A stretch of DNA of 64,000 nucleotides from Clostridiales bacterium UBA4698 (GCA_002404755.1 DHKI01000007.1:79-64078); one strand, 5' to 3'. Shown: positions 1,708-54,199, counted from the first letter of the stretch. The notes: generated from the letters alone by a model not told the origin. Translations and numbers: made by a program.

Positions 1708-1823
1708 TAAAAAGTATTCACCAATAAAAGTTTAAAAATTTTTTCTTGTACGTTATAATATGGACTTTTAATTATTGATATGGTACTATATTTTTGAAAG
1801 TTATTTTTTCGGGGAGTGAGAGT

Positions 1824-3032: not shown

Positions 3033-3045
3033 AGGATGATGAATA

Positions 3046-3507: not shown

Positions 3508-3529
3508 GAGGCTTTAAAAATAATAATCT

Positions 3530-5198: not shown

Positions 5199-7400
5199 AT
5201 GAAAAAGGTATTACTTAAGATTGATGGTATGACTTGTAGTGCATGCTCTTCAGGACTAGAAAAGTACCTAAACAAACAAGATGGAATAAAAGAGGCAGTA
5301 GTAAATCTAGTAATGAACAATGCAAGCGTAGAATATGATGATACAAAATTAACACTAGAGCAAGTTGAAAAATTTGTTGAAAAAGCAGGCTTTACAAGTC
5401 TAGGAATAGATAATTTTGAAAAAGATGAAAAGAAAAAATCAAATGAAAAGTACAAGCTAATTGGTATAACAATCATTTCACTATTAGTTTTGTATATATC
5501 AATGTCGCATATGGTTGGTTTGCCAGTCATTCCATTTTTACACATGGTAAATCATCCTGTAAATTTTGCGGTGGCGTTATTTATACTTACAACAATAGTA
5601 CTAGTTATGGGAAGAGATATTTTAAAAAATGGATATAAAAATTTGATTCATAAAACACCAAATATGGATACTTTAGTTACTATAGGTGTTTTAGCAAGCT
5701 ATATATATAGTATTTATGGAACGATACAAATATTAAATGGTCAAAAAGAGTATGTAGAAAACTTGTATTATGAATCAGCTGCAATAGTAATTTTCTTTAT
5801 CAAAATAGGTAAGTTTGTAGAAAATAAAAATAAAGACAAAACAAAAGAAGCATTAAAAAGTCTGATGAGTATAACACCAAACAATGCAACAATAATAAGA
5901 GACGAAAAAGAAGTTAAAGTTACAATAGATGAAATTCAAAAGGGTGATATAGTAATTTGCAAACCTGGTGAAAAGATTGCGGTAGATGGTGAAATAGTAG
6001 ATGGAGAGACTCATATAAACGAATCATTTATAACAGGTGAAAGTGTTCCAGTAAAAAGAGTGATAGGCTCAAAAGTAATTGCAGGAAGCATAAATTATGA
6101 GGGGACGATAAAGTATAAAGCTGAGAAAATAGGTAGAGAATCAACTGTATCAGAAATAGTAAGATTAGTTGCTGGAGCTACGGCAACAAAGGCACCAATA
6201 GCTAAAATCGCAGATAAAATAAGCGGATATTTTGTGCCAGTAGTTTTAGTAATAGCAGTAATATCATTTGTTTTGTGGCTTGCCATTTCAAAAGATTTAG
6301 CACATGCAATCAATATATTTGTTAGTATATTAGTAGTTGCGTGTCCATGTAGCTTAGGTCTTGCAACACCACTTGCAGTAGTTATTGCATCTGGTAATGC
6401 GAGCAAAAAAGGAATACTAGTAAAAACAAGTGAAGCACTAGAAAATACTCATAAAGTTAAGACAATATGTTTTGACAAAACAGGAACATTAACAAAGGGA
6501 ACATTAAGCGTATCAAAAATATATAACTATGGCGGAATAGAAGAAAACGAGCTTATTAAAAAAGTGGCAAGCATAGAAAATAAATCAGAACATCCAATAG
6601 CAAGGGCAATAGTAAATTATGCAAAAGAAAAGAACATAGAGCTAGAAGAAGTAAAGGAATTCAAAGCGATTGCAGGTTTTGGAGTTAGTGCAGAAACAAA
6701 CGAAGGAGATAAATATTTAATAGGAAATAGCAAGCTAATGAACAACGAAAATATAGAAATATTAAATGATGAAGATGAGAAAACATTAGTAAATGAAGGC
6801 AACAGTATTTTGTTTGTCAGTAAGAATGGTAAGCTAGTAGCACTAATTGGAGTAAAAGATGTTTTAAAAGAAAATGTGGCAGAAGTAATAAAAGAATTAA
6901 AAGCAAAACATATAGAAATAGTAATGCTAACAGGAGATAATGAAAAGACAGCAGAAATAATAGCAAAGCAAATAGGAATAGATAAAGTAATATCAAATGT
7001 TACACCAAAAGAAAAAGCAGAAAAAATAAAAGAACTAAAAAAAGATGGCTTAGTAATGATGTGCGGAGACGGAATAAATGATAGTGTAAGTTTGGTTACA
7101 TCAGATATAGGAGTTTCAATATCTTCAGGAACAGATATAGCAATGGATTCAGCACAAGTAGTTATAATGAACGATGACCTAGAAAAAATAAATGAACTAA
7201 GAGAAATAAGTGAAAAAACAATAAGAAATATAAAACAAAACTTGTTTTGGGCATTCTTTTATAATGTATGTATGATACCAATAGCATGCGGAATATTAGA
7301 GCCATTTGGAGTAGAAATGAATCCAATGATAGCAGCTTTTGCGATGACAATAAGCAGTTTAACAGTAGTATTAAACGCATTAAGACTTAGAACTAAATAA
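5199..7400 (+). CDS. copA: Copper-translocating P1B-type ATPase
   Basis: N-terminal HMA (GMTCSACS), CPC transmembrane motif (ACPCSLGLATP), the DKTGTLT phosphorylation site and the GDGINDS hinge. Confidence 0.95.
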   Translation: MKKVLLKIDGMTCSACSSGLEKYLNKQDGIKEAVVNLVMNNASVEYDDTKLTLEQVEKFVEKAGFTSLGIDNFEKDEKKKSNEKYKLIGITIISLLVLYISMSHMVGLPVIPFLHMVNHPVNFAVALFILTTIVLVMGRDILKNGYKNLIHKTPNMDTLVTIGVLASYIYSIYGTIQILNGQKEYVENLYYESAAIVIFFIKIGKFVENKNKDKTKEALKSLMSITPNNATIIRDEKEVKVTIDEIQKGDIVICKPGEKIAVDGEIVDGETHINESFITGESVPVKRVIGSKVIAGSINYEGTIKYKAEKIGRESTVSEIVRLVAGATATKAPIAKIADKISGYFVPVVLVIAVISFVLWLAISKDLAHAINIFVSILVVACPCSLGLATPLAVVIASGNASKKGILVKTSEALENTHKVKTICFDKTGTLTKGTLSVSKIYNYGGIEENELIKKVASIENKSEHPIARAIVNYAKEKNIELEEVKEFKAIAGFGVSAETNEGDKYLIGNSKLMNNENIEILNDEDEKTLVNEGNSILFVSKNGKLVALIGVKDVLKENVAEVIKELKAKHIEIVMLTGDNEKTAEIIAKQIGIDKVISNVTPKEKAEKIKELKKDGLVMMCGDGINDSVSLVTSDIGVSISSGTDIAMDSAQVVIMNDDLEKINELREISEKTIRNIKQNLFWAFFYNVCMIPIACGILEPFGVEMNPMIAAFAMTISSLTVVLNALRLRTK

Positions 7401-23626: not shown

Positions 23627-23686
23627 AACATAATTTTAAGGGGCTGTTATGGAATAATTTTTTAAATATGAAATATAATAATAACA

Positions 23687-23789
23687 AAAAGTGTGTATAT
23701 ACACAAAAAAAGTAAAAAATAATTGACTAAATTATATTTTATGGATTATAATATTAACGAAAAGTGTGTGCACACACAAAAAAAGTAAA
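23687..23789 (+). promoter_or_regulatory. Promoter flanked by two 30-bp operator-like repeats
   Basis: Two copies of AAAAGTGTGT(AT/GC)... at 23687-23716 and 23760-23789. They differ only in the centre. Each contains a perfect palindrome: TGTGTATATACACA (23692-23705) and GTGTGTGCACACAC (23764-23777). They bracket TTGACT (23723-23728), an 18-nt spacer and TATAAT (23747-23752). Confidence 0.55.
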
Positions 23790-25440: not shown

Positions 25441-25923
25441 ATGGGATTTAAAGAAAAATTGTTTAATGGAGAATTAAAGATATATCCAGTAGAAGATGTA
25501 TATAGAATTTACGGCAAGACTTTTGAAGATAAGGATGAAATAAAAGAGCTTGGTGGAGTATGGAATAGTGAAAGAAAAGTTTTTGAAATAACTAGAGAAG
25601 CTTTTGCAAAATTAGAGCCAGAAGTAAGAGATAAAATTATACATCTAATACTGCAAGAAAAAGTCAAAAGTAAAAAGGTAATTGAAGAAAATATCTTAAA
25701 CGATAATCTTAAACTTTATTTGAAAGATGATGTTTATAGAGTTTATGGAAAAACAAAGGAAATTTATAAAGACTTAATAAATACAGGGTTTCACTTCGTT
25801 GATGGTAAGTATGAAATTGGTATTGAAATTTTTAGTGCAGGATTTTGTGATGAAGCTAAAGAGAAAGTTATGCAACTTGTAAATGAGCCACCACAAGTAG
25901 AAGATGAAGAAATGGAGGCGTAA
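25441..25923 (+). CDS. Hypothetical protein with two DUF5710-like repeats
   Basis: Internal duplication: VYRIYGKTFEDKDEIKELGGVWNSERKVFEI and VYRVYGKTKEIYKDLINTGFHFVDGKYEI. The pattern resembles the ...EKDEAK.LGA.WD...K.W module seen on primase/topoisomerase-associated proteins. Acidic tail. Confidence 0.5.
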   Translation: MGFKEKLFNGELKIYPVEDVYRIYGKTFEDKDEIKELGGVWNSERKVFEITREAFAKLEPEVRDKIIHLILQEKVKSKKVIEENILNDNLKLYLKDDVYRVYGKTKEIYKDLINTGFHFVDGKYEIGIEIFSAGFCDEAKEKVMQLVNEPPQVEDEEMEA

Positions 25924-25925
25924 AA

Positions 25926-26354
25926 ATGGGGTATAAAACAGATGTAAGACTTATAACTACACTAAAAGGTTTTAGAGAAATAAAAAAATTTGCAGGACAA
26001 AAAATTGCAGAAAATGATGAAGGTGCAGAAATATTAAAAGAGCCAGATATAGAGCAAAAGTATAAAGACATTATAAAGCTTGGTTGGAATGATATGCGAG
26101 GAAATGAAGTAGAGCTTTTACAAGAATGTATGATTGAGTTTATGGAAAAAGATATAACATATAGAGCGATGTATCTTGGCGAGAATATTGAAGATATAGA
26201 AGAAAATTCATACACAAGTCCGAAAGATAATAAAAAATTTATACCATATCCAAGCATAACTAGAGAGTTTGATGAGGAGGAAGATGAAAGACAATTAAAC
26301 CAGTACTTAAAAGAAATTGAAAATAAAAAAGAGGAAGAAATGGAGTATGAATAA
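25926..26354 (+). CDS. Hypothetical acidic protein
   Basis: 142-aa ORF, translationally coupled to its neighbours, with a strongly acidic C-terminus. Confidence 0.5.
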   Translation: MGYKTDVRLITTLKGFREIKKFAGQKIAENDEGAEILKEPDIEQKYKDIIKLGWNDMRGNEVELLQECMIEFMEKDITYRAMYLGENIEDIEENSYTSPKDNKKFIPYPSITREFDEEEDERQLNQYLKEIENKKEEEMEYE

Positions 26355-26356
26355 TT

Positions 26357-27253
26357 ATGGGGATACCTAAAGAATTAATATTTGGTGGCAAAAAAACAAC
26401 GCCAGAAATTAAAGATGATATAAACAATATAAAAAATATAGAGATAAGTAAAATGGTTGATTTTAGATTAGGTCAGCCATTTTCTTTATATACAGAAGAA
26501 AAAATGGAACAAATGAAAGAAAGCATTTCTCGTAATGGTATTTTAACTCCTATTATTGCAAGGCAAATAGAAGAAGATAAATATGAAATTATTGCAGGGC
26601 ATAATAGAGTTAAATGTGCTAAAGAATTAGATTTTAAAACTGTGCCTACAATGATTGTTGATGTCGATGATGATAATGCAAAATTAATAATGCTAGAAAC
26701 AAATCTTTGTCAAAGAGATGATATACTACCAGTTGAAAAAGGTATTGCATATAAAATGCAACTTGAAACATTAAAGAAAATTCGAGAAAAAGAGGCTGAC
26801 CACATTGGTCAGGGGTATAGCGTAGAAAAAATTGCAGAGCAAACTACTGATTCAAAAACAACAATACAAAGATTAATAAGATTAACAGAACTTATCAAAC
26901 CTTTACAAGAAAAAGTAAATACAGGAGAACAAATATCTATTTTAGCAGGAGTTGAACTATCGCATATAAATAAGGATGAACAAGAAATTGTTAATAAGAT
27001 AATTGAGGAAAATAATTTAAAAATATCAATAGCGCAAGCAGAAGAAATAAGAGCTATTAAAGGGACTATTACAGAAGAAAGTATTGTAGAAATATTTGCT
27101 CCTAAACCTAAAGAAAAACAAGTCAAATTTACTGGTAAAATTAGCAAAAATACATTTCAAAAATATAAGGAGAAATTTAATAGCAATGAGGAATTTGATG
27201 AATTAGTAAATATGTTATTAGAGGACTATTTTAAAGAAAGTGAAGTCAATTAG
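26357..27253 (+). CDS. ParB N-terminal-domain (ParB/Sulfiredoxin-like) protein with HTH
   Basis: ILTPIIARQ...YEIIAGHNRVKCAKEL (ParB box), then an HTH-like GYSVEKIAEQTTDSKTTIQRLIRLTEL. Confidence 0.8.
   Translation: MGIPKELIFGGKKTTPEIKDDINNIKNIEISKMVDFRLGQPFSLYTEEKMEQMKESISRNGILTPIIARQIEEDKYEIIAGHNRVKCAKELDFKTVPTMIVDVDDDNAKLIMLETNLCQRDDILPVEKGIAYKMQLETLKKIREKEADHIGQGYSVEKIAEQTTDSKTTIQRLIRLTELIKPLQEKVNTGEQISILAGVELSHINKDEQEIVNKIIEENNLKISIAQAEEIRAIKGTITEESIVEIFAPKPKEKQVKFTGKISKNTFQKYKEKFNSNEEFDELVNMLLEDYFKESEVN
26786..26814. repeat. 29-bp exact repeat, copy 1, inside the ParB-like gene; contains palindrome CTGACCA-CAT-TGGTCAG
   Basis: GAAAAAGAGGCTGACCACATTGGTCAGGG is identical to 29242-29270. 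The palindrome lies at 26796-26812. In frame, it reads EKEADHIGQG. Confidence 0.9.
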
Positions 27254-27267
27254 TTATAGCAAGATTC

Positions 27268-27287
27268 CTATTCGTGTACACAAATAG
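27268..27287. promoter_or_regulatory. 20-bp near-perfect palindrome upstream of mobC (candidate oriT inverted repeat or operator)
   Basis: CTATTCGTGTACACAAATAG: arms of 10 nt with one mismatch. It is in the 76-nt gap between the ParB-like gene and mobC/relaxase. Confidence 0.35.
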
Positions 27288-27329
27288 ATTGTTGGAAGTA
27301 TCCCATACCCTCTTGAAAGTAGGTGGAAA

Positions 27330-27641
27330 ATGAAAAAAGACATACACATAAGAATAACAGAAGATAATTATCGAAGATTAAAAAAGAAATCAAAAGAATT
27401 ATTAATAACTCAAACAGAGTTTATAGAAAGATTTATAAGCAATGGGCAAATCATAGTTATAAATGACTTGGTAGAAATGCAAAGACAATTAAGATACATA
27501 GGAAATAATTTGAATCAACTTACTAAATTGTGCCACGAGGGTAGAATAGAGTGTTTAAATTTGGCAGAAACAAAAAAGGAAGTGAGTAAGATATGGCAAT
27601 TATTAAATTTATTAATTCAAAAACAAAACTTGAAACTTTAA
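27330..27641 (+). CDS. MobC-like relaxosome accessory protein
   Basis: 103 aa. LRYIGNNLNQLTKLCHEG is the typical MobC-family motif. Overlaps the relaxase start. Confidence 0.75.
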   Translation: MKKDIHIRITEDNYRRLKKKSKELLITQTEFIERFISNGQIIVINDLVEMQRQLRYIGNNLNQLTKLCHEGRIECLNLAETKKEVSKIWQLLNLLIQKQNLKL

Positions 27642-28504
27642 TAAACTATGTAACTAAAAAGAGTAAGGTTTTTGCAGTTGATGGTAAGGACTGTTTAGTA
27701 GATAGTGCTTTAGATGAAATGATTTCTGTAAAAAAAGCTTTTCAAAAAGAAGGTGGCAGAGAGTCAATTCATATAATTCAATCCTTTTCTCCAGATGATA
27801 ATATTACACCAGAGAAAGTACACGAGTTAGGTATTAAATTAGCAGAGTATTTTAAAAACCACCAAGTTCTGGTTGCAACACATATTGACAAAGAACATTT
27901 ACATAGTCATTTAGTTGTTAATTCTGTAAATTTTGAAACTGGTGCAAAGTATCAACAAAGTAAGCAAGAGATGGAACAAATAAAGGAATATTCAAGAAAG
28001 CTATGTTTGGAAGCAGGACTCAAAGTGATTACGCATAAATCAAAAGTAACAGATATAAAAATAAATGAATATAAAGCTATTGAAAAGGGAAATAGCTGGA
28101 AGAAAAAGTTGGCAGAAGACATTGAAAATACAATGGAAATAGCCCAAAGTAAGTATGAGTTTATCAGAGTAATGAAAGAAAAAGGATATAAAGTTACTTG
28201 GCGAAAAGAAAGAAAATATATTACATATACAACTCCAGACGGAAAGAAATGTAGAGATAACAAATTACACAACGAAAAATACTTGAAAGAAAATATGAAT
28301 GCATATTTTGAAGAGAAAAAGATGCAAAAAGAAACAAAAGAGATTACTGGAAAAATAGTAAATACTATCGCATATAATTCAAAACAAAATTCAAATTCAA
28401 GAAAGGTAAATTATAAGGGCGATTTATCTAAACAGGCACAGAAAGAATATGCATTAAAGAAAGCAAATGCTAGTAGTATTTCTTGGGAAGAAAATGAAAT
28501 GTAA
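27593..28504 (+). CDS. Relaxase/mobilisation nuclease (MobA/VirD2-type, MOBQ-like, short form)
   Basis: HIIQSFSPDD and the histidine triad ATHIDKEHLHSHLVVNSV are typical of the relaxase domain. Confidence 0.85.
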   Translation: MAIIKFINSKTKLETLINYVTKKSKVFAVDGKDCLVDSALDEMISVKKAFQKEGGRESIHIIQSFSPDDNITPEKVHELGIKLAEYFKNHQVLVATHIDKEHLHSHLVVNSVNFETGAKYQQSKQEMEQIKEYSRKLCLEAGLKVITHKSKVTDIKINEYKAIEKGNSWKKKLAEDIENTMEIAQSKYEFIRVMKEKGYKVTWRKERKYITYTTPDGKKCRDNKLHNEKYLKENMNAYFEEKKMQKETKEITGKIVNTIAYNSKQNSNSRKVNYKGDLSKQAQKEYALKKANASSISWEENEM

Positions 28505-28516
28505 GGAGGAGATGAT

Positions 28517-28870
28517 ATGGAGGAAAATAGATATATAGAAGTATTGCTTAAGAAACCAAACCGACACCCCAAAAAAGTAACTATTGAAAATTCACTTGAA
28601 GCAATGCAAAGATTGGTTGGTGGAAATATTGAAGTAGTACAATTATATGATGCACTTCTTGTTTGTAATGAGGAGGGAAAGTTAAAAGGACTAGAGCCAA
28701 ATGTTGTTATTGGAGATGATACAATATGTGGTTCTTTTTTTATTGCAGGAGATGATTATGAAAATGCAGACTTTGTGAGTATTTCTAAAAAGCAATACAG
28801 AATGTTTGAAAATAAATTTTCAAGACAAAGACAGAAAATAAATGAAATGGAGGTTGAAGAAATGGAATGA
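28517..28870 (+). CDS. DUF3846-like protein
   Basis: KKVTIENSLEAMQRLVGGNIEVVQLYDALLVCNEEGKLKGLEPN resembles DUF3846, which is common next to ICE coupling proteins. Confidence 0.55.
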   Translation: MEENRYIEVLLKKPNRHPKKVTIENSLEAMQRLVGGNIEVVQLYDALLVCNEEGKLKGLEPNVVIGDDTICGSFFIAGDDYENADFVSISKKQYRMFENKFSRQRQKINEMEVEEME

Positions 28871-30735
28871 GAAAGAAACTAATAATATTTTTAATAATGT
28901 TAATAGTTACAATACCTATATGTGCATATATCTCAACAATAGTACATTTGAATTTAATAAAAGAATTTACGAGCATATCAGATATAAACAGTCAAACTGT
29001 AATACAAAGTATAGTTGGAAGTGAGAAACATCTTCAATTGTATATGTTATTACAGTTTTTATTTATGCTATTCATAGTGTTAATTGTTTTCGTAGAAACA
29101 ACTAATATTTTTGAAAGTAAATTAGGTAATGTAACAGATAAGATTAAAACTCCATTTATCGTAGGGCAAGGACAACACGGAACTGCGAGATGGTTAAAAG
29201 ATAATGAGTATGAAAAGGTTTTTGACAAAAATATTTTGTATGAAAAAGAGGCTGACCACATTGGTCAGGGCAAAAGTGTTGAAAAGATTAATTTTAAAGA
29301 TGGTGGATTAGTAGTTGGTTATAAAAAGAAAAAAGATAGTGAAGAAATTTATTACATAGGAGATAATACACATTCTTTAACTGTCGGAGCAACAAGAAGT
29401 GGAAAAACAAGAACTATTGTATTACAGACCATAGGAAATTTAGGACTAGCAGGAGAGAGTATGATTATAAGTGATCCAAAAGGAGAAATATATGATTATA
29501 CATCGAAATTTCTAGAAGATATAGGATATGAAACAATAGTAATAGATTTTAAAAATCCACAGAAAAGTAATAGATATAACTTTTTACAACCAGTAATAGA
29601 TGCAGTTAATAAGGAAGATTACAGAAAGGCAGAAGAATATGCGTGGGACATAACTTCAAGTTTAGTTGGTAACGAAGATAGCAGAATGGAAAGAATATGG
29701 AAAGATGGCGAAATGAGTATTATTGCAGGAGCTATAATGGCAGTTGTTTATGAAAATAAAGAACATCCAGAATTTCAAAATTTAACAAATGTGTATTCGT
29801 TTATTTCTGAAATGTGTAGAACAGAAGATGGGCAAATGCCAATTAATGAATACATAAATGACTTAGATGAAAATAATCCTGCAACTAGAATTTTTAATAT
29901 TGCTAGAATTGCACCAGAAAAAACTAGAGGTAGTTTTTTTACTTCGGCACTTACAACATTAAAATTGTTTACAAGTGAAAGCATATATGGAATGACATCT
30001 GATAGTGATTTTTCGTTAAAGGATACCAGTGAAAAGAAAAGGGCTATTTATATAATTCTTCCAGATGAAAGAGTAACTTATTATTCATTAGCCAGTTTGT
30101 TCGTAAACCAACAATACACTAATTTAGTTGAAGTTGCAGATGGCAGAGGTGGAGAACTGAAGAAAAGGACTAATTTTGTATTAGATGAGTTTGGAAATTT
30201 TACTACAATACCTGCATTTGCAAATATGCTTACTGTTGGTGGAGGCAGAAAAATTAGATTTAATATATTTCTACAATCGTTTGCACAATTAGAACAAAAA
30301 TATACAAGAGAGGGTGCAGAGAATATATTAGATAATTGTCAAACTTGGATTTATCTTAAAACTGCAAATATGGAAACTGCAACGAAAATTATGCGTAAAC
30401 TCGGAAATTATACAACTTCGAGTTATTCAAAAAGTAGTTCGTATAATAGACACCAAGCAGGTAGTAATTCTGAAAGTATGAATTTAATATCAAGACCTCT
30501 TTTAACTGAAGATGAAATATTAAGAATTGAAAGACCTTATGTACTTGTTATAAATGCAGGAAATTATCCTGCAATAACTAAAATTCCAGACCTCTCAAAA
30601 TGGAGATTTAATAAACTTTATGGACTTGGAGATAAAGAACATAATAGAGCAGTTCGCGAAGAAAGAGAAAATAGCAGAAAAGTAAGAGAACTAAAGAAAA
30701 TGCAGTTGTGGGGTGTGTGGAATGAATATAGATAA
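28867..30735 (+). CDS. Type IV coupling protein (VirD4/TraG family)
   Basis: Two N-terminal TM helices, Walker A GATRSGKTR and Walker B FVLDEFGN. 622 aa. Confidence 0.9.
   Translation: MRKKLIIFLIMLIVTIPICAYISTIVHLNLIKEFTSISDINSQTVIQSIVGSEKHLQLYMLLQFLFMLFIVLIVFVETTNIFESKLGNVTDKIKTPFIVGQGQHGTARWLKDNEYEKVFDKNILYEKEADHIGQGKSVEKINFKDGGLVVGYKKKKDSEEIYYIGDNTHSLTVGATRSGKTRTIVLQTIGNLGLAGESMIISDPKGEIYDYTSKFLEDIGYETIVIDFKNPQKSNRYNFLQPVIDAVNKEDYRKAEEYAWDITSSLVGNEDSRMERIWKDGEMSIIAGAIMAVVYENKEHPEFQNLTNVYSFISEMCRTEDGQMPINEYINDLDENNPATRIFNIARIAPEKTRGSFFTSALTTLKLFTSESIYGMTSDSDFSLKDTSEKKRAIYIILPDERVTYYSLASLFVNQQYTNLVEVADGRGGELKKRTNFVLDEFGNFTTIPAFANMLTVGGGRKIRFNIFLQSFAQLEQKYTREGAENILDNCQTWIYLKTANMETATKIMRKLGNYTTSSYSKSSSYNRHQAGSNSESMNLISRPLLTEDEILRIERPYVLVINAGNYPAITKIPDLSKWRFNKLYGLGDKEHNRAVREERENSRKVRELKKMQLWGVWNEYR
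29242..29270. repeat. 29-bp exact repeat, copy 2, inside the coupling-protein gene
   Basis: GAAAAAGAGGCTGACCACATTGGTCAGGG. Same codon phase as copy 1 (EKEADHIGQG). Peptide similarity continues (G-K/Y-SVEKI) using different codons. Confidence 0.9.
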
Positions 30736-30764
30736 AAAATTAAAAAAGAAAGGAAAGAAAAAAT

Positions 30765-31097
30765 ATGAGAAAATTACAAGAAAAATTAGCAAAGATATTG
30801 GGAGCAAGTTTAATAATGGTGTTAGCATTTACAAGCTCTTGTTTTGCAACTGGAATACAAGGAACAACACTAGTAACAGGAACTCAAAATCTAATAACTG
30901 ACTTAACAAATTGGCTCTTAATAATTGCACCAACATTAACGATTTTACTTGTTGGTTATTATTTAATGAGAAAATCAGCATCAGATGAAATGGATGCGAA
31001 AAGATGGGATAGTAGGGTTAAAATTGCAATTATATGTTGTATTGGTGTAGTAGTTGCAAGTGGATTAATTAATGTTTTAATTGGCTACTATCAATAA
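30765..31097 (+). CDS. Small secreted/membrane protein (possible VirB2-like component)
   Basis: Signal peptide plus two hydrophobic helices. Position between the T4CP and the VirB6-like gene. Confidence 0.45.
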   Translation: MRKLQEKLAKILGASLIMVLAFTSSCFATGIQGTTLVTGTQNLITDLTNWLLIIAPTLTILLVGYYLMRKSASDEMDAKRWDSRVKIAIICCIGVVVASGLINVLIGYYQ

Positions 31098-32256: not shown

Positions 32257-33885
32257 ATGATGGAAGAAGATGTACTTTATTATCAAAATAGAAATAATAA
32301 AAGGGTTGCTAATAAAAAAGACTGGATCAAAATATTAGAAAGCGAAGAAAAAATAGAGAATAATAAAGTATTAGAAATTTTATTTTTCTTATATGACTGT
32401 AAAAATTACACTTCTACTGGAAAAAATATAGCAAAATATTTTGAAACTGAAGTAGCTGCGATTAATAGTTATGTAAGTCATTTTGGAAAAAGAATAATTG
32501 ACTTACTGGGTATTGAAGAACAAGAAAATTCAAGAGGAGGAAGCTTGAGATGGAATATTCCTTTTGAAACAATACCAGAACTAAACCAAGCTAGTGCTTT
32601 TACTTGGAAGTTAAGGGATGAGTTGGTAGAAGCAATGGCTGAAAGATATGATTTGTTGCCTAAAAAAACAGATACAATAGAAGATAAGATAAAACAATTT
32701 ATAGAAAAAAGACCATACGCTGAATATATGCAAAGTATCACAGATGATTTACAAACAAGAAATGAATTTGTAGAAAAGTTTAATATTAATCGAATTATGA
32801 ATATGCAAATTGATGACTTCGTAATAGGAAGATTAAACTTAGATGAAAAAGGTAAAGAAAGTTTTTGTTATGTATTAGAAACTCGTATGACAAACTTGGG
32901 AGAAATGCGAGGAGCTTTTGTATCTAAATTTGGAGTGTGGTATAGTGCTAAAAACGGGGAATATGATTTCTCAAATAAGTACGGAGAAACTTTAGAAGAA
33001 GCATTTTTGAAATTAAAGCAAGAAATTTGCTCGTTACTAATTAGTGGAAACAACAAAGATTATAATGAAATACAAGAAAATATGATAGCACCTATTTTTA
33101 AGGGAAAAATATTATCTACATATTATCCAGAAAAATATTTGGCAATGTTTAATGAAGATGATGTAAATAAATTTTTAATAGAGCTAAATATAGATTATGA
33201 TGTTAATTTGGTTGATACACTAGAAAAGAAAAAAGCATTGTTGAAAGAGTTTAAAGAAAATCAAAAAGAATTAAAAGACAAATCTGATTATTACTTTATA
33301 GCTTTTTTATATGACACATTTAGAGATGCAGTAAAAGAAAAAAATACAGTATCTGGTGCAATTGATTACAATATAGAATTTGTTGATTTTAATTACATAC
33401 AAAGACACGAAGCGAAAAAGAAAAATGAATATAGGTCTAGAAGTACAGATTATGAGAAAATAAGTAGAAACAAAAAAGATGTAGGTAATAGAGGAGAACA
33501 AGCAGTTTTAAAATATGAAAAGAATAAACTTATTAGTTTAGGAAAAGAAGAATTAGCAGAACAAGTATATATATGTGAAAATGATGCTATTGGCTATGAT
33601 ATTGTATCTTATGACGAAATGGGTAAAGAAATACATATTGAAGTAAAAACCAATAGTGGCAATCAAAAGTATTTGGATTTCTATATTAGTGATAATGAAT
33701 TAAATACAATGTTAATAGATGATTCGTATTATATTTATTATTTATTTAATATAAAAGGGAAACCAAAATGTCATATAATTAATAAACAAAAGATTTTAGA
33801 AAGAAAAGAAGAATTTTTCCAACCTGTTATTTACAAGGTAAATATAGATGTAGAAAAAGTAGATGAATTGAATAAAAACGACTAG
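32257..33885 (+). CDS. DUF3883-type (PD-(D/E)xK nuclease-like) C-terminal domain protein with an unknown N-terminal region
   Basis: C-terminal GNRGEQAVLKYEKNKL...GYDIVSYDEMGKEIHIEVKTN...FYISDNELN fits the DUF3883 D...E.K pattern. Extended -10 TGATATAAT at 32214-32222 upstream and a terminator at 33884-33914 downstream. Confidence 0.6.
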   Translation: MMEEDVLYYQNRNNKRVANKKDWIKILESEEKIENNKVLEILFFLYDCKNYTSTGKNIAKYFETEVAAINSYVSHFGKRIIDLLGIEEQENSRGGSLRWNIPFETIPELNQASAFTWKLRDELVEAMAERYDLLPKKTDTIEDKIKQFIEKRPYAEYMQSITDDLQTRNEFVEKFNINRIMNMQIDDFVIGRLNLDEKGKESFCYVLETRMTNLGEMRGAFVSKFGVWYSAKNGEYDFSNKYGETLEEAFLKLKQEICSLLISGNNKDYNEIQENMIAPIFKGKILSTYYPEKYLAMFNEDDVNKFLIELNIDYDVNLVDTLEKKKALLKEFKENQKELKDKSDYYFIAFLYDTFRDAVKEKNTVSGAIDYNIEFVDFNYIQRHEAKKKNEYRSRSTDYEKISRNKKDVGNRGEQAVLKYEKNKLISLGKEELAEQVYICENDAIGYDIVSYDEMGKEIHIEVKTNSGNQKYLDFYISDNELNTMLIDDSYYIYYLFNIKGKPKCHIINKQKILERKEEFFQPVIYKVNIDVEKVDELNKND

Positions 33886-46654: not shown

Positions 46655-47506
46655 ATGAATGTAATAAAATCGTCAGAAATAATAAAGTACCAGTTTTATT
46701 CAATGCCTAAAGAATTATTTGCAGATAAATATAAAGATTTAAGTTTAGAAGCTAAAATGATATACACATTATTTATTGATAGATTAGAATTATCAAAGAA
46801 AAATAATTGGGTTAATGAAAATGGAGAAGTATATTTGATTTTTAAACGAAGTGAAATCGGTGGTAAATTAAACTTAACTGATAAAACAGTATCTAAAGCA
46901 ATAAAAGATTTAAAGAATTTTAATTTAATCTATGAACAAAGACAAGGATTGGGCAAAGCCAATTTGATATATATAGGAAAGTTAAATTTGGATAATCAAG
47001 ATACGGAAAAATCACCTTTCTTGAACGGTAAAATTTCCGATTCAAGACACGGAAAAAATCCGACTCAAGATACGGAAATTTTCCGACCAAGTAATACTAA
47101 TATAAATAATACTAATTTTAATGATACTGATGTCAGTCAGTCGGTAATAGATGAGGAGTTAGAAAGAATAAAGCAGAAGTGTGAATTGCACTTGCTAGAA
47201 GAAGTAGATAGCAGAGGTAATATAAACACAAAGTTGAGAGAAATAATAGAAAATGCAATCGAAATGATGTACTACTCATCATCTATAACTGTTGGTAATG
47301 CAGTAATACCACAGTATATCGTAAGAAGTAAAATGAAACAGTTAAATGGGGCAAAAATATTTTATGCGTTAGAAAAATTAAAAAATAATTTAAAAAACAC
47401 AGAAAATTTTTCAAATAGTTCAAAATATATAATAAGTTGCCTGTATAACGCAATAAATGAGTACTTTAGCGATGCAGAGATACAGTTTAGAATAGACACA
47501 AATTAA
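46655..47506 (+). CDS. Replication initiator, RepA_N family
   Basis: KYQFYSMPKELFADKYKDLSLEAKMIYTLFIDRLELSKKNNWVNENGEVYLIF is typical of the RepA_N N-terminal domain. Confidence 0.7.
   Translation: MNVIKSSEIIKYQFYSMPKELFADKYKDLSLEAKMIYTLFIDRLELSKKNNWVNENGEVYLIFKRSEIGGKLNLTDKTVSKAIKDLKNFNLIYEQRQGLGKANLIYIGKLNLDNQDTEKSPFLNGKISDSRHGKNPTQDTEIFRPSNTNINNTNFNDTDVSQSVIDEELERIKQKCELHLLEEVDSRGNINTKLREIIENAIEMMYYSSSITVGNAVIPQYIVRSKMKQLNGAKIFYALEKLKNNLKNTENFSNSSKYIISCLYNAINEYFSDAEIQFRIDTN
46996..47086. repeat. Four tandem ~22-bp iteron-like repeats inside the rep gene
   Basis: Units: TCAAGATACGGAAAAATCAC, CTTGAACGGTAAAATTTCCGA, TTCAAGACACGGAAAAAATCCGA and CTCAAGATACGGAAATTTTCCGA. The last contains the palindrome CGGAAA-T-TTTCCG. 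Confidence 0.6.
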
Positions 47507-47988: not shown

Positions 47989-50298
47989 ATGGAAAACTAT
48001 TATGAATTATCTGAAGAAGATACAAGAGCCAAATTCATAGATGGAAGTCTGAAAGCTAAATGGGCTGAAAGTCAAATAAGAAGAGAAACACCATTTACTG
48101 ATGGAAGAATAACAGTAAGAGGTAAAATGGTGTCAAGAGGGACTAGAAAAAGAACAGACTATATTTTATATAATAAATCTAATAGTCCTTTAGCGATAGT
48201 GGAAGCAAAGAAATACAGTGAACCTGTTGGTAAAGGTATGCAACAGGCGATAGAGTATGCCCAAATACTTGATATACCATTTGCTTATTCTACTAACGGT
48301 AGGGGATTTTTAGAGCATAATATGCTTACTGGAGAAGAAAGAGAGTTCTCAATGGGTGAGTTCCCAACCCCAGAAGAATTATGGGACAGATACAAAAATG
48401 CAAAAAGTATTTCCGAAACAGAAGAACAAATAATAAATGAGCCATATTATTATCAAGCAGGAGAAAAACACCCAAGATATTATCAGCGAATTGCAATAAA
48501 TAGAACTGTTGAAGCAGTAGCTAAAGGTAAAAATAGGATTTTATTAGTAATGGCAACAGGTACAGGAAAAACATATACTGCGTTCCAGATTATATATAGA
48601 CTTTGGAAATCTGGAAAAAAGAAAAAAATATTATATTTGGCAGATAGAAATGTCTTGATAGACCAAACAATGTCGCAAGACTTTCAACCATTTTCTAAAG
48701 TAATGACCAAAATTGAACACAAGAAAATGGATAGTTCTTATGAAATATATATGGCGTTGTATCAGCAATTAATAGATGGTAATGGAAATGATGTATTTAA
48801 AGAATTTGATAAAGATTTCTTTGACCTAATTATTGTTGACGAATGTCATAGAGGTAGTGCTGCTGAAGATTCAAATTGGAGAAGAATTTTAGAATATTTT
48901 GAAAGTGCTACACAAATTGGTTTAACTGCTACTCCAAAGGAAACAAAAGAAGTATCAAATATTTCATACTTTGGAGAGCCAATATATACATATAGCTTGA
49001 AACAGGGAATTGATGATGGATTTTTAGCACCATATAAAGTTATAAGAGTAAATTTAGATAAAGATTTACTAGGCTACATTCCAGAAGCAGGAAAGTTAGA
49101 TATGTACGGCAATGAGATTGAGCAAAGAGAATATAACACAAAAGATTTTGATAAAAATATAATTATTGATGATAGAACTAAAAAAGTTGCAGAACAAATT
49201 ACTGAAATTTTAAAAGAAAATGATAGATTTGCAAAGACTATTGTATTCTGTGTGGACATTGAACACGCAGAAAGAATGCGTCAAGCATTGGTAAATGAAA
49301 ATGCCGATTTAGTAAAAGAAGATCCAAGATATATAATGAGAATTACTGGAGATAACAATGAGGGAAAAGCACAATTAGACAATTTTATTGATGTTGAAAG
49401 CAAGTATCCTACTATTGTTACTACATCGAAATTAATGACAACAGGTGTTGACTGTAAAACTTGTAAATACATTGTAATTGATTCTTTAATAGCGAGTATG
49501 ACAGAGTTTAAACAAATAATAGGTCGTGGTACTAGAATTAGAGAAGATTATGGAAAATCATATTTCACAATAGTAGATTTTAGGAATGTAACTCGACTTT
49601 TCCAAGACAAAGACTTTGATGGAGAGCCGGTTGTAGTAGAAGATTTCCCAAAACCTAAAGGTACTGGAGATGATACTGAAAATGGTAATAGTGGAGGAGA
49701 TGGAACAACACCAGTTGATCCACCTATTGAGCCAAAGACACAAAAATACAGAGTTAATGATGTAGAAGTAGAAATAATCAATAAAATGGTACAGTATTAT
49801 GGGAAAGATGGAAAGCTTACAACAGAGTCTTTGGTTGATTTCTCAAAAAGAAGTATTTTGAATGAATATGCTGATTTGAATACATTTATTAATAGATGGA
49901 ATAGTGAAGAAAAGAAACAAGCTATAATTGATGAATTAAAGGAACACGGAATATTATTAGAAGCATTAAGAGAAGAAGTGGGTAAAAAAGATATAAGCGA
50001 CTTTGATTTAATACTTCATATTGCTTATGATAAAAAACCATTAACCAAAGCAGAAAGAGCAAATAAAGTAATGAAAAAAGGTTATTTGTATAAATATTCT
50101 GAACAAGCACAACTTGTATTATCAATGTTGTTACAAAAATATCAAGATAGTGAAATATTAGATTTATCTGATACGAGAGTTTTACAACTTCGTCCATTTG
50201 ATGGGTTAGGTGGACCTCTAAAAATTGTAAAATTATTTGGAGGAAAAGAAGAATATGTGAAAGCTGTGGAAGAATTAGAAAATGAATTATATGCGTAA
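47989..50298 (+). CDS. hsdR: Type I restriction enzyme R subunit
   Basis: N-terminal PD-(D/E)xK (DYILY...AIVEAKK), helicase motif I MATGTGKT, motif II DECHRG and motif VI QIIGRGTR. Confidence 0.9.
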   Translation: MENYYELSEEDTRAKFIDGSLKAKWAESQIRRETPFTDGRITVRGKMVSRGTRKRTDYILYNKSNSPLAIVEAKKYSEPVGKGMQQAIEYAQILDIPFAYSTNGRGFLEHNMLTGEEREFSMGEFPTPEELWDRYKNAKSISETEEQIINEPYYYQAGEKHPRYYQRIAINRTVEAVAKGKNRILLVMATGTGKTYTAFQIIYRLWKSGKKKKILYLADRNVLIDQTMSQDFQPFSKVMTKIEHKKMDSSYEIYMALYQQLIDGNGNDVFKEFDKDFFDLIIVDECHRGSAAEDSNWRRILEYFESATQIGLTATPKETKEVSNISYFGEPIYTYSLKQGIDDGFLAPYKVIRVNLDKDLLGYIPEAGKLDMYGNEIEQREYNTKDFDKNIIIDDRTKKVAEQITEILKENDRFAKTIVFCVDIEHAERMRQALVNENADLVKEDPRYIMRITGDNNEGKAQLDNFIDVESKYPTIVTTSKLMTTGVDCKTCKYIVIDSLIASMTEFKQIIGRGTRIREDYGKSYFTIVDFRNVTRLFQDKDFDGEPVVVEDFPKPKGTGDDTENGNSGGDGTTPVDPPIEPKTQKYRVNDVEVEIINKMVQYYGKDGKLTTESLVDFSKRSILNEYADLNTFINRWNSEEKKQAIIDELKEHGILLEALREEVGKKDISDFDLILHIAYDKKPLTKAERANKVMKKGYLYKYSEQAQLVLSMLLQKYQDSEILDLSDTRVLQLRPFDGLGGPLKIVKLFGGKEEYVKAVEELENELYA

Positions 50299-50313
50299 GA
50301 TAAGGAGATAGAA

Positions 50314-51798
50314 ATGGGTATTGGAAATGTAATAAAAAGATTAAGAGATATAATGTGGAAAGATGATGGAGTCAATGGAGATGCACAAAGAATAGAGCAA
50401 ATTGTATGGATTTTATTTTTGAAAGTTTATGATGCACAAGAACAACAATGGGAACTAGATGAAGATAATTATGAGTCAATAATTCCAGAAGAATTAAGAT
50501 GGAGAAATTGGGCAGTAGATTTAAAAGACGGTAAAGCATTAACTTCTGAAGCTTTGTTAGATTTTGTAAATAATAAGTTGTTTCCAACCTTAAAGAAATT
50601 AGATGTAAATGAAGAAACACCAAAGAAAAAAGCAATAGTAAAATTTATATTTGAAGATATTAACAACTATATGAAAAATGGGATTTTGTTAAGACAAGTA
50701 ATTAATACTATTGACGAAATTGACTTTACAGACACAAATGAAAAACACGAATTTAATGAAATATATGAAACGATGTTAAAAGAATTGCAAAGTGCAGGTA
50801 GTGCAGGAGAATTCTATACACCAAGACCAGTAACAAACTTTATGGTTGAAATGGTTAGTCCAACTTTAGATGATAGAATTGCAGACTTTGCTTGTGGTAC
50901 AGGTGGTTTCTTAACTTCTGCTTTAGATTTCCTAGATAAACAAGTAGATAATTTAGAAGATAGAAAGAAATATAATAATTCTATATATGGAATTGAAAAG
51001 AAATCACTACCATACTTACTTTGCGTTACTAATATGCTATTTCATAATATTGAAGAGCCTAATATTGAACATAAAAATAGCTTAAGTAAGAATGTTAGAG
51101 ATTATTCCATTGATGAAAAATATGATGTTATAATAATGAATCCACCTTATGGTGGCTCTGAATTAAAAAATATTCAAGCTAATTTTCCAATGGAATTAAG
51201 AGGCTCTGAAACTGCTGATTTATTTATGACACTTATTTTATATCGTTTAAGAAATAATGGTAGAGTAGCAGTTATCTTACCAGATGGATTTTTATTTGGT
51301 ACAGATAATACAAAAACAAATATTAAAAAGAAAATATTAGAAGAATGTAATTTACATACAATAGTTAGAATGCCTAGTAGTGTATTTGCACCATATACTT
51401 CTATAACAACTAATATTCTTTTCTTTGATAAAACAAAGAAAACTGATGAGGTATGGTTTTATAGAATGGATATGCCAGAAGGATATAAGAATTTCTCAAA
51501 AACGAAACCTATAAAGAATGAACACTTTGATAAAGTAAGAGAATGGTGGAACAATAGAGTAGAAATCAAAGATGAAAAAGAAGATGAAAGTTCTACTGAA
51601 ACGTATAAATCTAAAAAATATACTGCTGAAGAAATTGTTAATTTGAATTATAACTTGGATTTGTGTGGTTATCCACATAAAGAAGAAATAATATTAGAGC
51701 CAAAAGAACTTATAAGCCAATATCAAGAAAAAAGAGCGAACTTAAATGCAGAGATTGATAAAATTTTAGATGAAATAAGTAAAATGTTGGAGGAATAA
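50314..51798 (+). CDS. hsdM: Type I R-M N6-adenine DNA methyltransferase subunit
   Basis: Motif I DFACGTGGFL and motif IV NPPYGG. Confidence 0.9.
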   Translation: MGIGNVIKRLRDIMWKDDGVNGDAQRIEQIVWILFLKVYDAQEQQWELDEDNYESIIPEELRWRNWAVDLKDGKALTSEALLDFVNNKLFPTLKKLDVNEETPKKKAIVKFIFEDINNYMKNGILLRQVINTIDEIDFTDTNEKHEFNEIYETMLKELQSAGSAGEFYTPRPVTNFMVEMVSPTLDDRIADFACGTGGFLTSALDFLDKQVDNLEDRKKYNNSIYGIEKKSLPYLLCVTNMLFHNIEEPNIEHKNSLSKNVRDYSIDEKYDVIIMNPPYGGSELKNIQANFPMELRGSETADLFMTLILYRLRNNGRVAVILPDGFLFGTDNTKTNIKKKILEECNLHTIVRMPSSVFAPYTSITTNILFFDKTKKTDEVWFYRMDMPEGYKNFSKTKPIKNEHFDKVREWWNNRVEIKDEKEDESSTETYKSKKYTAEEIVNLNYNLDLCGYPHKEEIILEPKELISQYQEKRANLNAEIDKILDEISKMLEE

Positions 51799-51799
51799 A

Positions 51800-53380
51800 A
51801 TGACTGCACAAGAATTAAAAAATTCTATTCTTCAACTAGCTATACAAGGCAAGTTAGTTCCACAAGATCCAAATGATGAACCTGCAACTGTGTTGCTAGA
51901 GAAGATAAAAGAAGAAAGAAATAAGTTAATAAAAGAAAAAAAGATAAAAAAAGAAAAATATTCTGAAATATATAAAGATGAAACCGATAATCATTATTAT
52001 GAGAAGTTTGAAGATGGGACCGTAAATGATATTACTGAAGAGATACCGTTTGATATACCTGATAATTGGAAATGGGTACATTTTGAAAATTTAGGATATT
52101 TCATTTCAGGTTATACCCCAAAAAGAGAAGAAATATCATCCAATGGTAATATACCATATTTTAAAGTTTCAGATATGAATACCAATGGTAATGAGATCTA
52201 TTTAATATATACAGATAATTATTTATGTACTAACAAGTATTATCCAAAAAACACTATTGTTTATCCTAAAAATGGCGGAGCTGTTTTTACTAACAAACGA
52301 AGAATATTAAAATATGATTCTGTCGTGGATTTGAATACAGGTGGTTTTTGTTGCTATAGTTTTGCTTATCTAAATTTTATGTTCTTATTATTCAGCAACA
52401 TTGATTTTAGACAATATTATAAAGGAACAGCATTGCCTACTTTGGATATGGATAAAATAAAAAGAATATATATTCCATTTCCACCACTTAATGAACAAGA
52501 GAGAATAAAAAATAAAATAGAAATACTAAATCCAATTATAAACTTATATGATTCAAAATATAATGAAATCGAAGCTTTAAATACCTCTTATAAAGAAGAA
52601 CTAAAGAAATCAATATTGCAATATGCTATTCAAGGAAAATTAGTAAAACGAGATCCTAATGATGAACCGGCAGAAGTTTTGATTAATAAAATTCTTGAAG
52701 AAAAAAGAGAGTTAATAAAAACAAAGCAAATTAAAAAAGAGAATTTGTCTGTAATATATAAAGATAGTACAGATAATCAATTTTATGAGAAGTTTGATGA
52801 TGATACGATTGTCAATATTACAGATGAAATTCCTTTTGATATACCAAGCAATTGGTGTTGGACAAAATTAAGAAATATCGGCGTATATAAAAAAGGTCCA
52901 TTTGGTAGTGCATTAACAAAAAGTATGTTTGTACCTAAATCTAATGAAACAATAAAAGTTTATGAACAAAAAAATGCAATTCAGAAAAACGCTACTTTAG
53001 GAGAATATTATATAACAAAAGATTATTTTGAAAGGAGTCTGACAGGATTTGAAATTTTTCCAAATGATATAATTGTTAGTTGTGCTGGTACAATTGGAGA
53101 GACTTATGTTATGCCTAATGAAATGGAAAGAGGAATAATAAATCAGGCATTAATGCGAATGAGAATATTAGAATTATTTCCTAAAGATTACTTTTTATTA
53201 TATTTTGATTATGTATTAAAAAAATCATCTGCCAAAAAAAGTAGTGGTTCCGCAATTAAAAATATTCCACCATTTGACATTTTCAAAGAATTCCTTGTAG
53301 CAGTACCACCAATAGCAGAGCAAAAACGTATTTTAGGAAAGTTGAATATAATGTTTAATATTATCAAAACAGCTGAATAA
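51800..53380 (+). CDS. hsdS: Type I R-M specificity subunit (expressed copy), arranged CR-TRD1-CR-TRD2
   Basis: Two variable target-recognition regions separated by duplicated conserved regions (LQxAIQGKLV..DPNDEPA...IPFDIP.NW.W). Start overlaps the hsdM stop. Confidence 0.9.
   Translation: MTAQELKNSILQLAIQGKLVPQDPNDEPATVLLEKIKEERNKLIKEKKIKKEKYSEIYKDETDNHYYEKFEDGTVNDITEEIPFDIPDNWKWVHFENLGYFISGYTPKREEISSNGNIPYFKVSDMNTNGNEIYLIYTDNYLCTNKYYPKNTIVYPKNGGAVFTNKRRILKYDSVVDLNTGGFCCYSFAYLNFMFLLFSNIDFRQYYKGTALPTLDMDKIKRIYIPFPPLNEQERIKNKIEILNPIINLYDSKYNEIEALNTSYKEELKKSILQYAIQGKLVKRDPNDEPAEVLINKILEEKRELIKTKQIKKENLSVIYKDSTDNQFYEKFDDDTIVNITDEIPFDIPSNWCWTKLRNIGVYKKGPFGSALTKSMFVPKSNETIKVYEQKNAIQKNATLGEYYITKDYFERSLTGFEIFPNDIIVSCAGTIGETYVMPNEMERGIINQALMRMRILELFPKDYFLLYFDYVLKKSSAKKSSGSAIKNIPPFDIFKEFLVAVPPIAEQKRILGKLNIMFNIIKTAE
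51983..52020. repeat. Inverted repeat IR1, left copy (38 bp, exact)
   Basis: ACCGATAATCATTATTATGAGAAGTTTGAAGATGGGAC is the exact reverse complement of 55624-55661. Confidence 0.9.
52651..52746. repeat. Inverted repeat IR2, left copy (96 bp, 2 mismatches)
   Basis: Reverse complement of 54871-54966, with mismatches at 52667 and 52706. Lies in the central conserved region of hsdS. Confidence 0.9.
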
Positions 53381-53395: not shown

Positions 53396-54199
53396 CTACC
53401 AATCAATTATTTTATTTACTATTTCTTGCTGTTCGGTGCTAGTTCTTCTTAAATAAATTCTAGTAGTTTCTATACTTTCGTGTCCCATTAAATCAGCTAG
53501 TAACGAAATGTCATTGAATCTTTCTAAAAAGCTTTTAGCAAATCGATGTCTAAATGAATGAGGGTAAATCACGTTAGGATTTAATCCATATTTTTTCCCT
53601 AGTTTTTTTAGTTCTCCTGCAATTCCCCTTGCAGTAATTCTTTTTCCAAATTTGTTTTTAAATATGAACCCATCTGTAATTTCCTTTTCTTCAAACCATT
53701 TCAATGCTTCTTCTTGAAGTTTTTGTGGAATATATATTCTTCTTAATTTTCCACCTTTTGAATATAAATCAAAATATCCAATTTTCACATGTTCTACTTT
53801 GAATTGTATTAACTCGCTAATTCTAGCACCTGTTGCAGTAATAAATCTTATAACAAAATACCAGTACATTTCCTTCTCATTTTTCAAACATTTCTTAAAA
53901 TATTCATAATCAGCTTCGCTAATTACATTTTCTAAAAAATTTTTTTGTTGTAATTTTAAAAGCGGTAATCTCAATTTATCTTTTTTTAAATATTTTAAGT
54001 AAGAATTTATTGCTTGAATTCTTAAATTTACAGTTTTTATCTTATAATTTTCAACAAGAAATGTTTTATAAGCTTGTAAATTTTTCTTGTTTAAAATCAA
54101 ATATTTTGATTGGTATTGTTTAACTGCAAACAGATAAGATTTTATGGTATTTTGAGAAAGATTTTTCTTTTTTAAGTATTCTTCAAAAGAAAAAACCAT
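53396..54199 (-). CDS. Tyrosine site-specific recombinase (XerC/D-like) located between the hsdS copies
   Basis: ATGARISE (Arg), HSFRHRF (HxxR) and GHESIETTRIY (His...Tyr) catalytic signature. 267 aa. Confidence 0.85.
   Translation of the reverse strand: MVFSFEEYLKKKNLSQNTIKSYLFAVKQYQSKYLILNKKNLQAYKTFLVENYKIKTVNLRIQAINSYLKYLKKDKLRLPLLKLQQKNFLENVISEADYEYFKKCLKNEKEMYWYFVIRFITATGARISELIQFKVEHVKIGYFDLYSKGGKLRRIYIPQKLQEEALKWFEEKEITDGFIFKNKFGKRITARGIAGELKKLGKKYGLNPNVIYPHSFRHRFAKSFLERFNDISLLADLMGHESIETTRIYLRRTSTEQQEIVNKIIDW

Follow-up and report, generated by a model that had tools for sequence, protein, structure and literature searches.

Why should an identical 29-bp sequence lie in the same codon phase in two unrelated genes of one genetic element? 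The question is raised by a 64,000-nucleotide stretch of Clostridiales bacterium UBA4698 (GCA_002404755.1, DHKI01000007.1:79-64078), here called the window. The sequence GAAAAAGAGGCTGACCACATTGGTCAGGG was found once in the gene of an orphan ParB-like protein and once in the gene of a VirD4-type type IV coupling protein (T4CP), both on the + strand. A preliminary description of the window had reported this repeat, its shared phase and its position on either side of mobC, the relaxase gene and the DUF3846 gene; exact-match searches confirmed the repeat and its phase, and open reading frame (ORF) calls with Pfam assignments confirmed the order of the genes. Judged from the comparison of related loci, the palindrome within the repeat is a dyad-symmetric DNA element under selection, which is inherited together with a ParB-type helix-turn-helix (HTH), covaries with it and is present in matched copies around the candidate origin of transfer (oriT) and the mobilisation (MOB) genes. 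The pair of 17-bp palindromes probably represents the cognate binding (nucleation) sites of the adjacent ParB-like protein, as parS does for ParB, NBS for Noc, OB for KorB and bisS for BisD.

Both copies translate to EKEADHIGQG. The palindrome, CTGACCA-CAT-TGGTCAG, has a G+C content of 53% against about 28% for the window. No third copy of the 29-mer and no further copy of the 17-bp core were present in the 64 kb at up to three mismatches. The 29-mer was not matched in any of 100 dinucleotide-preserving shuffles, so that no copy is expected by chance, and the half-site TGACCA/TGGTCA is not enriched in the window (12 occurrences, about 15 expected). The same two-copy arrangement was recovered in independent assemblies from other samples (related loci L092 and L093), which excludes an assembly artefact. 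Aligned over 48 nt, the two segments are 88% identical; 3' of the 29-mer, six similar residues (Y/K-S-V-E-K-I) are encoded in both genes by unlike codons, as had been noticed before. The earlier picture of a perfect core within flanks that had drifted only synonymously was correct for the core and wrong for the flanks, which show non-synonymous changes and a 9-nt indel.

Joint change of the palindromes and the recognition helix

Several variants of the site were found among close relatives. The window variant is shared by L006, CTGACCGA-A-TCGGTCAG is present in both genes of L003/L004, and L007 has CTATTCAA-A-TTGAACAG. In L001/L002 the T4CP gene contains CTGCTCAA-A-TTGAGCAG and parB contains CTACTCAA-A-TTGAGCAG. 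The two copies change in step in four lineages, and each switch alters both arms in a compensating manner; in both genes of L003/L004, a change of the His codon CAC to the Arg codon CGA is matched by the synonymous change of ATT to ATC. Counted over 23 nt, the copies within one element differ at 0, 0, 1 and 3 positions, whereas the distance across elements of unlike site type is 5-9. Between the window and L002, overall T4CP gene identity is 95.2%, yet 5 of the 17 site positions differ, and each T4CP site agrees with the parB copy of its own element. Around the core, the flanks of the T4CP insert have diverged, with codons gained and lost and a 9-nt indel that is independent of the site type. 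As far as can be read from these alignments, a short core evolves in concert and is constrained to remain symmetric; it is not a peptide that is conserved. The T4CP gene of L006 is interrupted by a group II intron encoding reverse transcriptase, maturase and an HNH protein (1622-4155).

For a wider view, 80 loci from species-representative genomes, chosen via the ParB alignment, were compared together with further metagenome loci; a scan of JGI metagenome contigs with the ParB protein added just three relatives, all distant (35-38% identity), and no further close lineage. Nearly all ParB-like homologs, from 33 to 100% identity, carry a palindrome in the stretch that follows the N-terminal domain and precedes the HTH, for example GTGACCTAATAGGTCAC, ATTCCACTGAGTGGAAT, AGTTCCCAGTGGGAACT, CCTGCTCAAGTTGAGCAGG, TTCCCAATATTGGGAA, GTGATTCCCTAATTAGGGAATCAC and the 27-mer AACTTGTGGCCAAGTTGGCCACAAGTT. 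The arrangement is 7-3-7 in the window and ranges from 8-1-8 up to 13-1-13 in relatives, with a 5-N5-5 core common to most sites. Of 49 distinct linker regions, 29 contained perfect arms of at least 7, a length reached in 12% of equally sized windows drawn at random from those loci; for arms of at least 11 the figures were 12% and 0.5%, and the longest arms measured 13. In 35 distinct cores the arms were complementary at 92.7% of positions (52%, maximum 62%, with the right arms shuffled), each arm position taking 2-4 types of Watson-Crick pair, and the pairs 1 and 2 nt from the centre were complementary in 26/32 and 31/32 cores.

The peptides encoded by these palindromes are unrelated to each other. 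ADHIGQ, ATQIEQ, NSTEWN, SQYWEK, LTCGQVGHKL and others were found in homologs, so that a conserved peptide motif, which the preliminary description had named among the findings that would speak against selection on the DNA, is not what was observed: the peptide varies widely, in the ParB-like as well as the T4CP family, and the dyad symmetry is retained. At the parB position the palindrome is family-wide with varying sequence; at the T4CP position it is confined to the closest relatives. A ParB-like homolog of 34% identity with a canonical GQRRVRA motif, encoded on the Enterococcus faecalis tet(O) plasmid LR962508.1 (L098), also bears a palindrome, TCGTCACAAGTTGTGACGA (7328-7346), which belongs to a near-palindrome of 27 nt where LTSSQVVTKL is encoded, so that the feature reaches elements of clinical enterococci.

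The variation of the half-site could be related to that of the predicted recognition helix, located by the DSSP assignment and the HMMER alignment to Noc. Its first residue, K167, is a variable K/R position and aligns with Noc Q158 and with ParB R173, R173/Q173 being an experimentally defined specificity-switching residue of ParB (PMC7383237). Helices of the form DSKT[TQ]IQ[RK] occur with the half-site TGACC (window, L003, L008, L010) or TGCCC (L088), DSRATIQR with T[G/A]CTC (ten loci, the lowest ParB identity to the window protein being about 50%), ESRATVQR with GTCTC (the 36%-identity clade), TSLAQIYR and ESTAQIYR with TTCTC, DSRTQIQR with GTTCC, and EGKSQIYN with TTCCA. Ala at helix position 4 is paired with CTC in three separate backgrounds. 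Where helices were identical, the mean half-site distance was 0-0.26 of 5 in every bin of flank identity; where they differed at 1-2 residues it was about 2.2, and this held in the bin of 80-100% flank identity too. In a partial Mantel test, 0 of 2000 permutations equalled or exceeded the observed value. These comparisons support that the half-site tracks the recognition helix and not overall relatedness. Two half-site predictions made from the peptide in advance were also borne out by the DNA, as TGCTC-N5-GAGCA in L089 and as two tandem TGCTC sites in L094.

The ParB-like protein and further copies of the palindrome

By sequence and by predicted structure, the product of the first gene is a genuine ParB/Noc/KorB-type protein. 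It matches Pfam PF02195 (ParB_N) with E=2.3e-19 and 69.7 bits, the cut-off being 26.3. The family profile matches structures of Noc and ParB through the HTH (E=4e-24 for Noc, 7nfu), and its match to KorB is weak (E=1e-3). The AlphaFold model, with a predicted local distance difference test score (pLDDT) of 85, has Noc, ParB-CDP/CTPgS, Spo0J and KorB as its best fold matches (E down to 5e-13). Helices 156-162 and 167-178 of the model form the HTH, the latter being the DSSP helix, and the Pfam HTH_ParB profile by itself stays under its cut-off (19.9 against 22.6 bits). The domain order is the ParB N-terminal domain, the GxxR motif (G81-R84, both residues invariant across 34 homologs), the site loop, the HTH and a helical C-terminal part. 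The codons of the site encode loop 146-155, which joins the final helix of the N-terminal domain to the initial helix of the HTH and is modelled with low confidence (pLDDT below 50 at residues 150-152).

The copy in the T4CP gene lies within an in-frame insertion, specific to the clade, of some 13-16 codons. The insertion is limited to the closest relatives, with T4CP genes of at least about 85-86% nucleotide identity; T4CP homologs with protein identities up to 75% lack it. Further copies were found elsewhere. In L041 and L048, with ParB proteins 45% and 42% identical to that of the window, an exact second copy lies about 5.6 kb downstream in an intergenic spacer, which indicates that a second site need not be coding. 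In L094 (10456-10503), the palindromes TGCTCACAGTGAGCA and TGCTCACAATGAGCA stand in tandem, 33 nt apart, through an in-frame duplication within the ParB loop codons, and homologs with peptides like LVHSEQ...DVHDEQ...DVHSEQ probably carry three sites. The copies in L041, L048 and L094 suggest that multiplication of the site is recurrent. In the EGKSQIYN clade, AGTCCAATAGGTGGAAT, some 7 kb downstream and with two mismatches, was considered as a second site and rejected, as only one half-site matches and the sequence is apparently coding. The window counterpart of the spacer in L041 and L048 is filled by an inserted NOV_C gene (32257-33885).

The proposed binding sites and competing explanations

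That the palindromes form a parS-like pair of sites for the adjacent protein had been among the suggestions of the preliminary description, and it is the favoured one here on account of the paired change in four lineages and the agreement of the half-site with the helix. The family-wide copy 1 would be old, its place in the poorly constrained codons of the pre-HTH loop letting gene and site travel together. Copy 2 would have arisen in a recent ancestor of the clade, when about 48 nt of parB were inserted in frame into a variable stretch of the T4CP gene, and would since have been kept matched to the ParB specificity. The two 5-bp half-sites (TGACC-N5-GGTCA) would be read by a ParB dimer via the recognition helix beginning with K167. 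If KorB and BisD are a guide, the protein might be loaded at its two sites, of which one lies 0.47 kb upstream and the other 1.97 kb downstream of the candidate oriT, and might then spread or slide over the oriT-mob-T4CP stretch of the co-oriented gene array. There it could control how its own gene and the transfer genes are transcribed, organise the oriT region, or both, and the fast joint change of helix and site between near-identical elements may prevent cross-reaction of related elements.

It is tentatively proposed, with somewhat more doubt than conviction, that protein and site constitute a portable cassette of a large Firmicutes family of orphan ParB-like proteins. Such a cassette would carry its site in its own reading frame, in the disordered loop before the helix, and would undergo fast paired changes of specificity, in which 2-3 helix residues and two half-site bases follow a recognition code (K-T with TG[A/C]CC, R-A with TGCTC, ..IYR with TT...). 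New sites would originate when the loop codons are copied in frame, whether in tandem or into another gene like that of the T4CP, where the pair would fence off oriT and the relaxosome genes.

A number of observations weigh against the proposed binding sites or parts of them. Box II of the protein reads GHNRVKCA, with GHNR and not GERR (canonical GERRxRA), and Box III (E114-T-N-L-C-Q-R120) differs in spacing, needing a one-residue gap against ENLQRE of Noc; both leave the behaviour as a cytidine triphosphate (CTP) clamp uncertain. No ParA-type Walker A motif (KGGxGK[ST]) occurs in the six frames of the 64-kb window, which makes a classical partition role unlikely despite the RepA_N initiator in the window, and no ParA was seen among the Pfam-annotated neighbours in relatives. 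L088 conformed to the predicted half-site only roughly, having TGCCC instead of TGACC with its DSKTTIQR helix. In parB, helix and site are just 40-60 nt apart, so that one recombination tract could carry both; the distant second copies, in T4CP genes or intergenic, alone escape this objection, being far from the helix. Paired copies are known in just four close lineages and two distant ones. Most relatives have the parB-embedded site only, within the 6-10 kb fetched on each side, and the close T4CP homolog P0122 ('ETINNNQL') has lost the palindrome of the insert, from which it follows that the second copy is dispensable. Within each element the two copies also share their central N5 spacer, an identity that selection on half-site recognition alone would not demand.

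The last three of these points, with the confinement of the insertion to close T4CPs, are what would be seen if only the parB copy were functional and the T4CP copy were a passenger fragment of parB in a tolerant loop, kept similar by gene conversion (which would also make the spacer identical) or by recent ancestry. This is the main rival reading of the T4CP copy and is considered unlikely. The flanks of the T4CP insert show divergence, including a 9-nt indel, whereas the 17-23-nt core is perfect and palindromic. For a conversion replacing the five central bases, the identical flanks would presumably measure just 12 nt and 5 nt, very little for homologous recombination. An exact second copy elsewhere is retained independently by L041 and L048, and L094 has a tandem duplication. 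Recombination between the two direct repeats, with deletion or excision of the 2.46-kb MOB module and formation of a ParB-N::T4CP fusion, had also been suggested before and is hardly credible on the present evidence. The full module is kept in all recovered relatives, and no protein of fusion length appeared, by length and not by a dedicated fusion search, among the 120 best matches to ParB (up to 319 aa) or to the T4CP (443-622 aa). The single parB site throughout the family and its link with the recognition helix would likewise be left unexplained. In its favour, the repeats are exact over 29 bp and in frame, and the T4CP ORF of L005 breaks exactly at the 5' edge of the repeat to run into part of a serine recombinase.

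Quite improbable, too, is a hairpin in single-stranded nucleic acid, be it an RNA stem-loop, an antisense intrinsic terminator or a hairpin of the transferred strand. Even 1-2 nt from the centre the pairs are still symmetric; a hairpin could not form these pairs, and a dimer on duplex DNA could use them. Many family members are perfect palindromes (8-1-8, 13-1-13, 12-0-12). The window sequence could form a 7-bp stem with a 3-nt loop (-9 to -9.7 kcal/mol), to which the compensating changes of the arms would be equally suited, but folding z-scores are ordinary (-1.2 to -2.7) and the commonest non-Watson-Crick pair is A/C, in an orientation that is inconsistent between loci. On the minus strand the stem is followed by CCUCUUUUUC and both copies are reported by a terminator scan; this T-rich flank is not conserved, reading GAAATAGAGG and GAAAATGGTG in relatives and being absent from L041 and L048. 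A minus-strand intrinsic terminator was rejected because L001, L002, L041 and L048 do not share its tail, which is moreover interrupted. An Rfam search of 25-31 kb in E-value mode gave nothing relevant. Very improbable is a role as relaxosome or oriT sites, likewise proposed earlier, with the relaxase or a MobC/NikA-like accessory protein as the binder; the position of the palindromes around the MOB module and the frequency of inverted repeats in oriT regions might point to it. The 29-mer varies between close relatives, and the conserved elements lie instead in the 76-nt spacer between parB and mobC, which is the likely oriT and the better candidate as far as its sequence tells. This spacer contains a 10-bp inverted repeat, CTATTCGTGT/ACACAAATAG (27268-27287), with one mismatch in the window and none in relatives, and downstream of it the conserved block GGAAGTATCCCATACCCTCTTG. 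The spacer is almost invariant in L088, L089 and L091, where the ParB protein is only 58-62% identical, and the repeat of L091 shows a compensatory change. MobC as the binder of the palindrome was rejected, since its variation does not follow the site: the N-terminal strand is near-identical in the window and L001 despite different site types, and quite different in L002, which has the site type of L001. The site also stays with parB beside other relaxases, MobL in L090 and a non-standard one with a faint match to Pfam Relaxase in L094.

Genetic surroundings, related systems and implications

The features discussed are collected in Table 1. A megablast search of PLSDB plasmids with positions 26000-31000 of the window gave no match.

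Table 1. Positions of the palindromes, the candidate oriT and the genes around them; positions refer to the window unless a related locus is named.
Feature	Position	Strand	Remarks
ParB-like gene (orphan), 298 aa	26357..27253	+	Pfam ParB_N; hosts copy 1
Copy 1 of the 29-mer	26786..26814	+	ParB-like gene, codons E144-G153; 17-bp palindrome 26796-26812
5-N5-5 core of copy 1, TGACC-ACATT-GGTCA	26797-26811	+	
Codons of predicted recognition helix K167-E178 (DS-KTTIQRLIRLTE)	26855..26890	+	DSSP; HMMER alignment to Noc
Candidate oriT	27258..27320	+	ParB-mobC spacer, between the palindrome copies
MOB module bracketed by both sites	27330..28870	+	
mobC/nikA-like gene	27330-27641	+	MOB module, between copies
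MobA/VirD2-type relaxase gene	27593-28504	+	MOB module, between copies
DUF3846 gene	28517-28870	+	MOB module, between copies
T4CP gene (VirD4/TraG-type), 622 aa	28867..30735	+	T4SS-DNA_transf, TraG-D_C; hosts copy 2
Copy 2 of the 29-mer	29242..29270	+	T4CP (VirD4-type) gene; core palindrome 29252-29268
Second copy in L041	10998-11016		Spacer directly upstream of ribosome-binding site, prgI-like type IV secretion system gene
Second copy in L048	14072-14092		Spacer directly upstream of ribosome-binding site, prgI-like type IV secretion system gene

Two genes 5' of parB, a 160-aa ORF (25441-25923) shows an internal duplication with two repeats around 'DDVYR[IV]YGKT'. This ORF and the next one, of 142 aa, are found beside parB in most close relatives and have no Pfam match; their products could be partners of the ParB-like protein. 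A tandem direct repeat of 68 nt (78% identity) lies further upstream, at or before the start of an AAA_14/DUF4143 gene (23649-23789), and each unit holds a palindrome of the GTGTGT..ACACAC type that could be an operator or promoter. In the second half of the window, a RepA_N replication initiator gene (46655-47506) is followed by the type I restriction-modification genes hsdR, hsdM and hsdS (47989-53380) and by a tyrosine recombinase gene on the strand opposite to them (53396-54199), which may be an arrangement for hsdS shuffling. The G+C skew reverses at about 52-56 kb. In L005 (4225-5529, junction near 4600), the T4CP sequence gives way, without loss of frame, to the C-terminal portion of a large serine recombinase (..NILYE/NQYYIREHH..); the junction could be a deletion remnant or an assembly chimera, and the palindrome might be a fragile spot.

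The closest precedent is BisD-bisS of the Pseudomonas element ICEclc, in which the ParB-like CTP clamp BisD loads at two identical palindromes inside inrR and ssb (PMC12409273). In both cases an orphan ParB-like protein of an integrative conjugative element is accompanied by two identical palindromes inside unrelated genes, which in the case of bisS are loading points for action on transfer genes. BisD differs by an extra activator domain and by working with BisC, nothing similar to which was seen in the window system, and the bisS sites consist of 11-bp repeats outside the bisD gene. It is proteobacterial and without a close sequence relationship to the window protein. Binding, CTP use and sliding have been demonstrated for BisD, whereas for the window protein we infer them from comparison. 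Short scattered palindromes that control transfer genes are also known from conjugative plasmids, in KorB-OB of RK2/RP4 and ParB-parS(NAH) of NAH7 (PMC12421886). KorB structures are among the fold matches of the window protein, but KorB works with KorA and the ParA protein IncC, and OB sites lie mostly at promoters and not in korB.

The best matches in sequence and fold are with Noc and its binding sites (NBS) and with ParB/Spo0J-parS, where 16-bp dyad-symmetric sites are read by the HTH. The window system departs from these in its 5-N5-5 site of 15-17 bp and odd length, in having no ParA and in its GHNR Box II. Moreover, parS is nearly universal in sequence, whereas the site of the window family is fixed at the codons of the pre-HTH loop and diversifies fast. 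One parS of Bacillus subtilis reportedly lies inside spo0J. Fast paired change of a few residues and site bases between close relatives is known from ParB-parS of plasmids P1 and P7, and is usually explained there as avoidance of incompatibility; that system has a different class of ParB with a ParA, and its parS lies outside the gene. By analogy, the same rationale could apply to the window element. HerB/YfjB of F is an orphan ParB-like protein of the leading region, with a CTP pocket and an HTH, encoded beside oriT on its presumed leading side (PMC13370423). No parS-like motif was found for HerB, which binds host chromosomal regions, in contrast to the obvious cognate palindrome of the window family. 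In the literature, no description was found of a site fixed in the loop codons of a ParB-like gene across a family, nor of the in-frame transplantation of such a site into a coupling-protein gene.

CTP switches of the ParB family on plasmids and integrative conjugative elements (KorB, BisD, HerB) are being actively studied, and a site or role is known for only a minority of the orphan ParB-like proteins encoded on Gram-positive conjugative elements. If the proposed relationship between protein and palindrome is true, the cognate site of hundreds of such proteins would be readable from their own genes, and the natural pairs of helix and half-site would provide a ready set for specificity tests of the ParB type by single-residue swaps (K167R, T168A). 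It would also be a clear case of a regulatory DNA site that constrains protein-coding sequence and is copied as such. With relatives on clinically relevant elements such as the tet(O) plasmid of E. faecalis, the sites and the protein could matter for the control of transfer or the stability of these elements.

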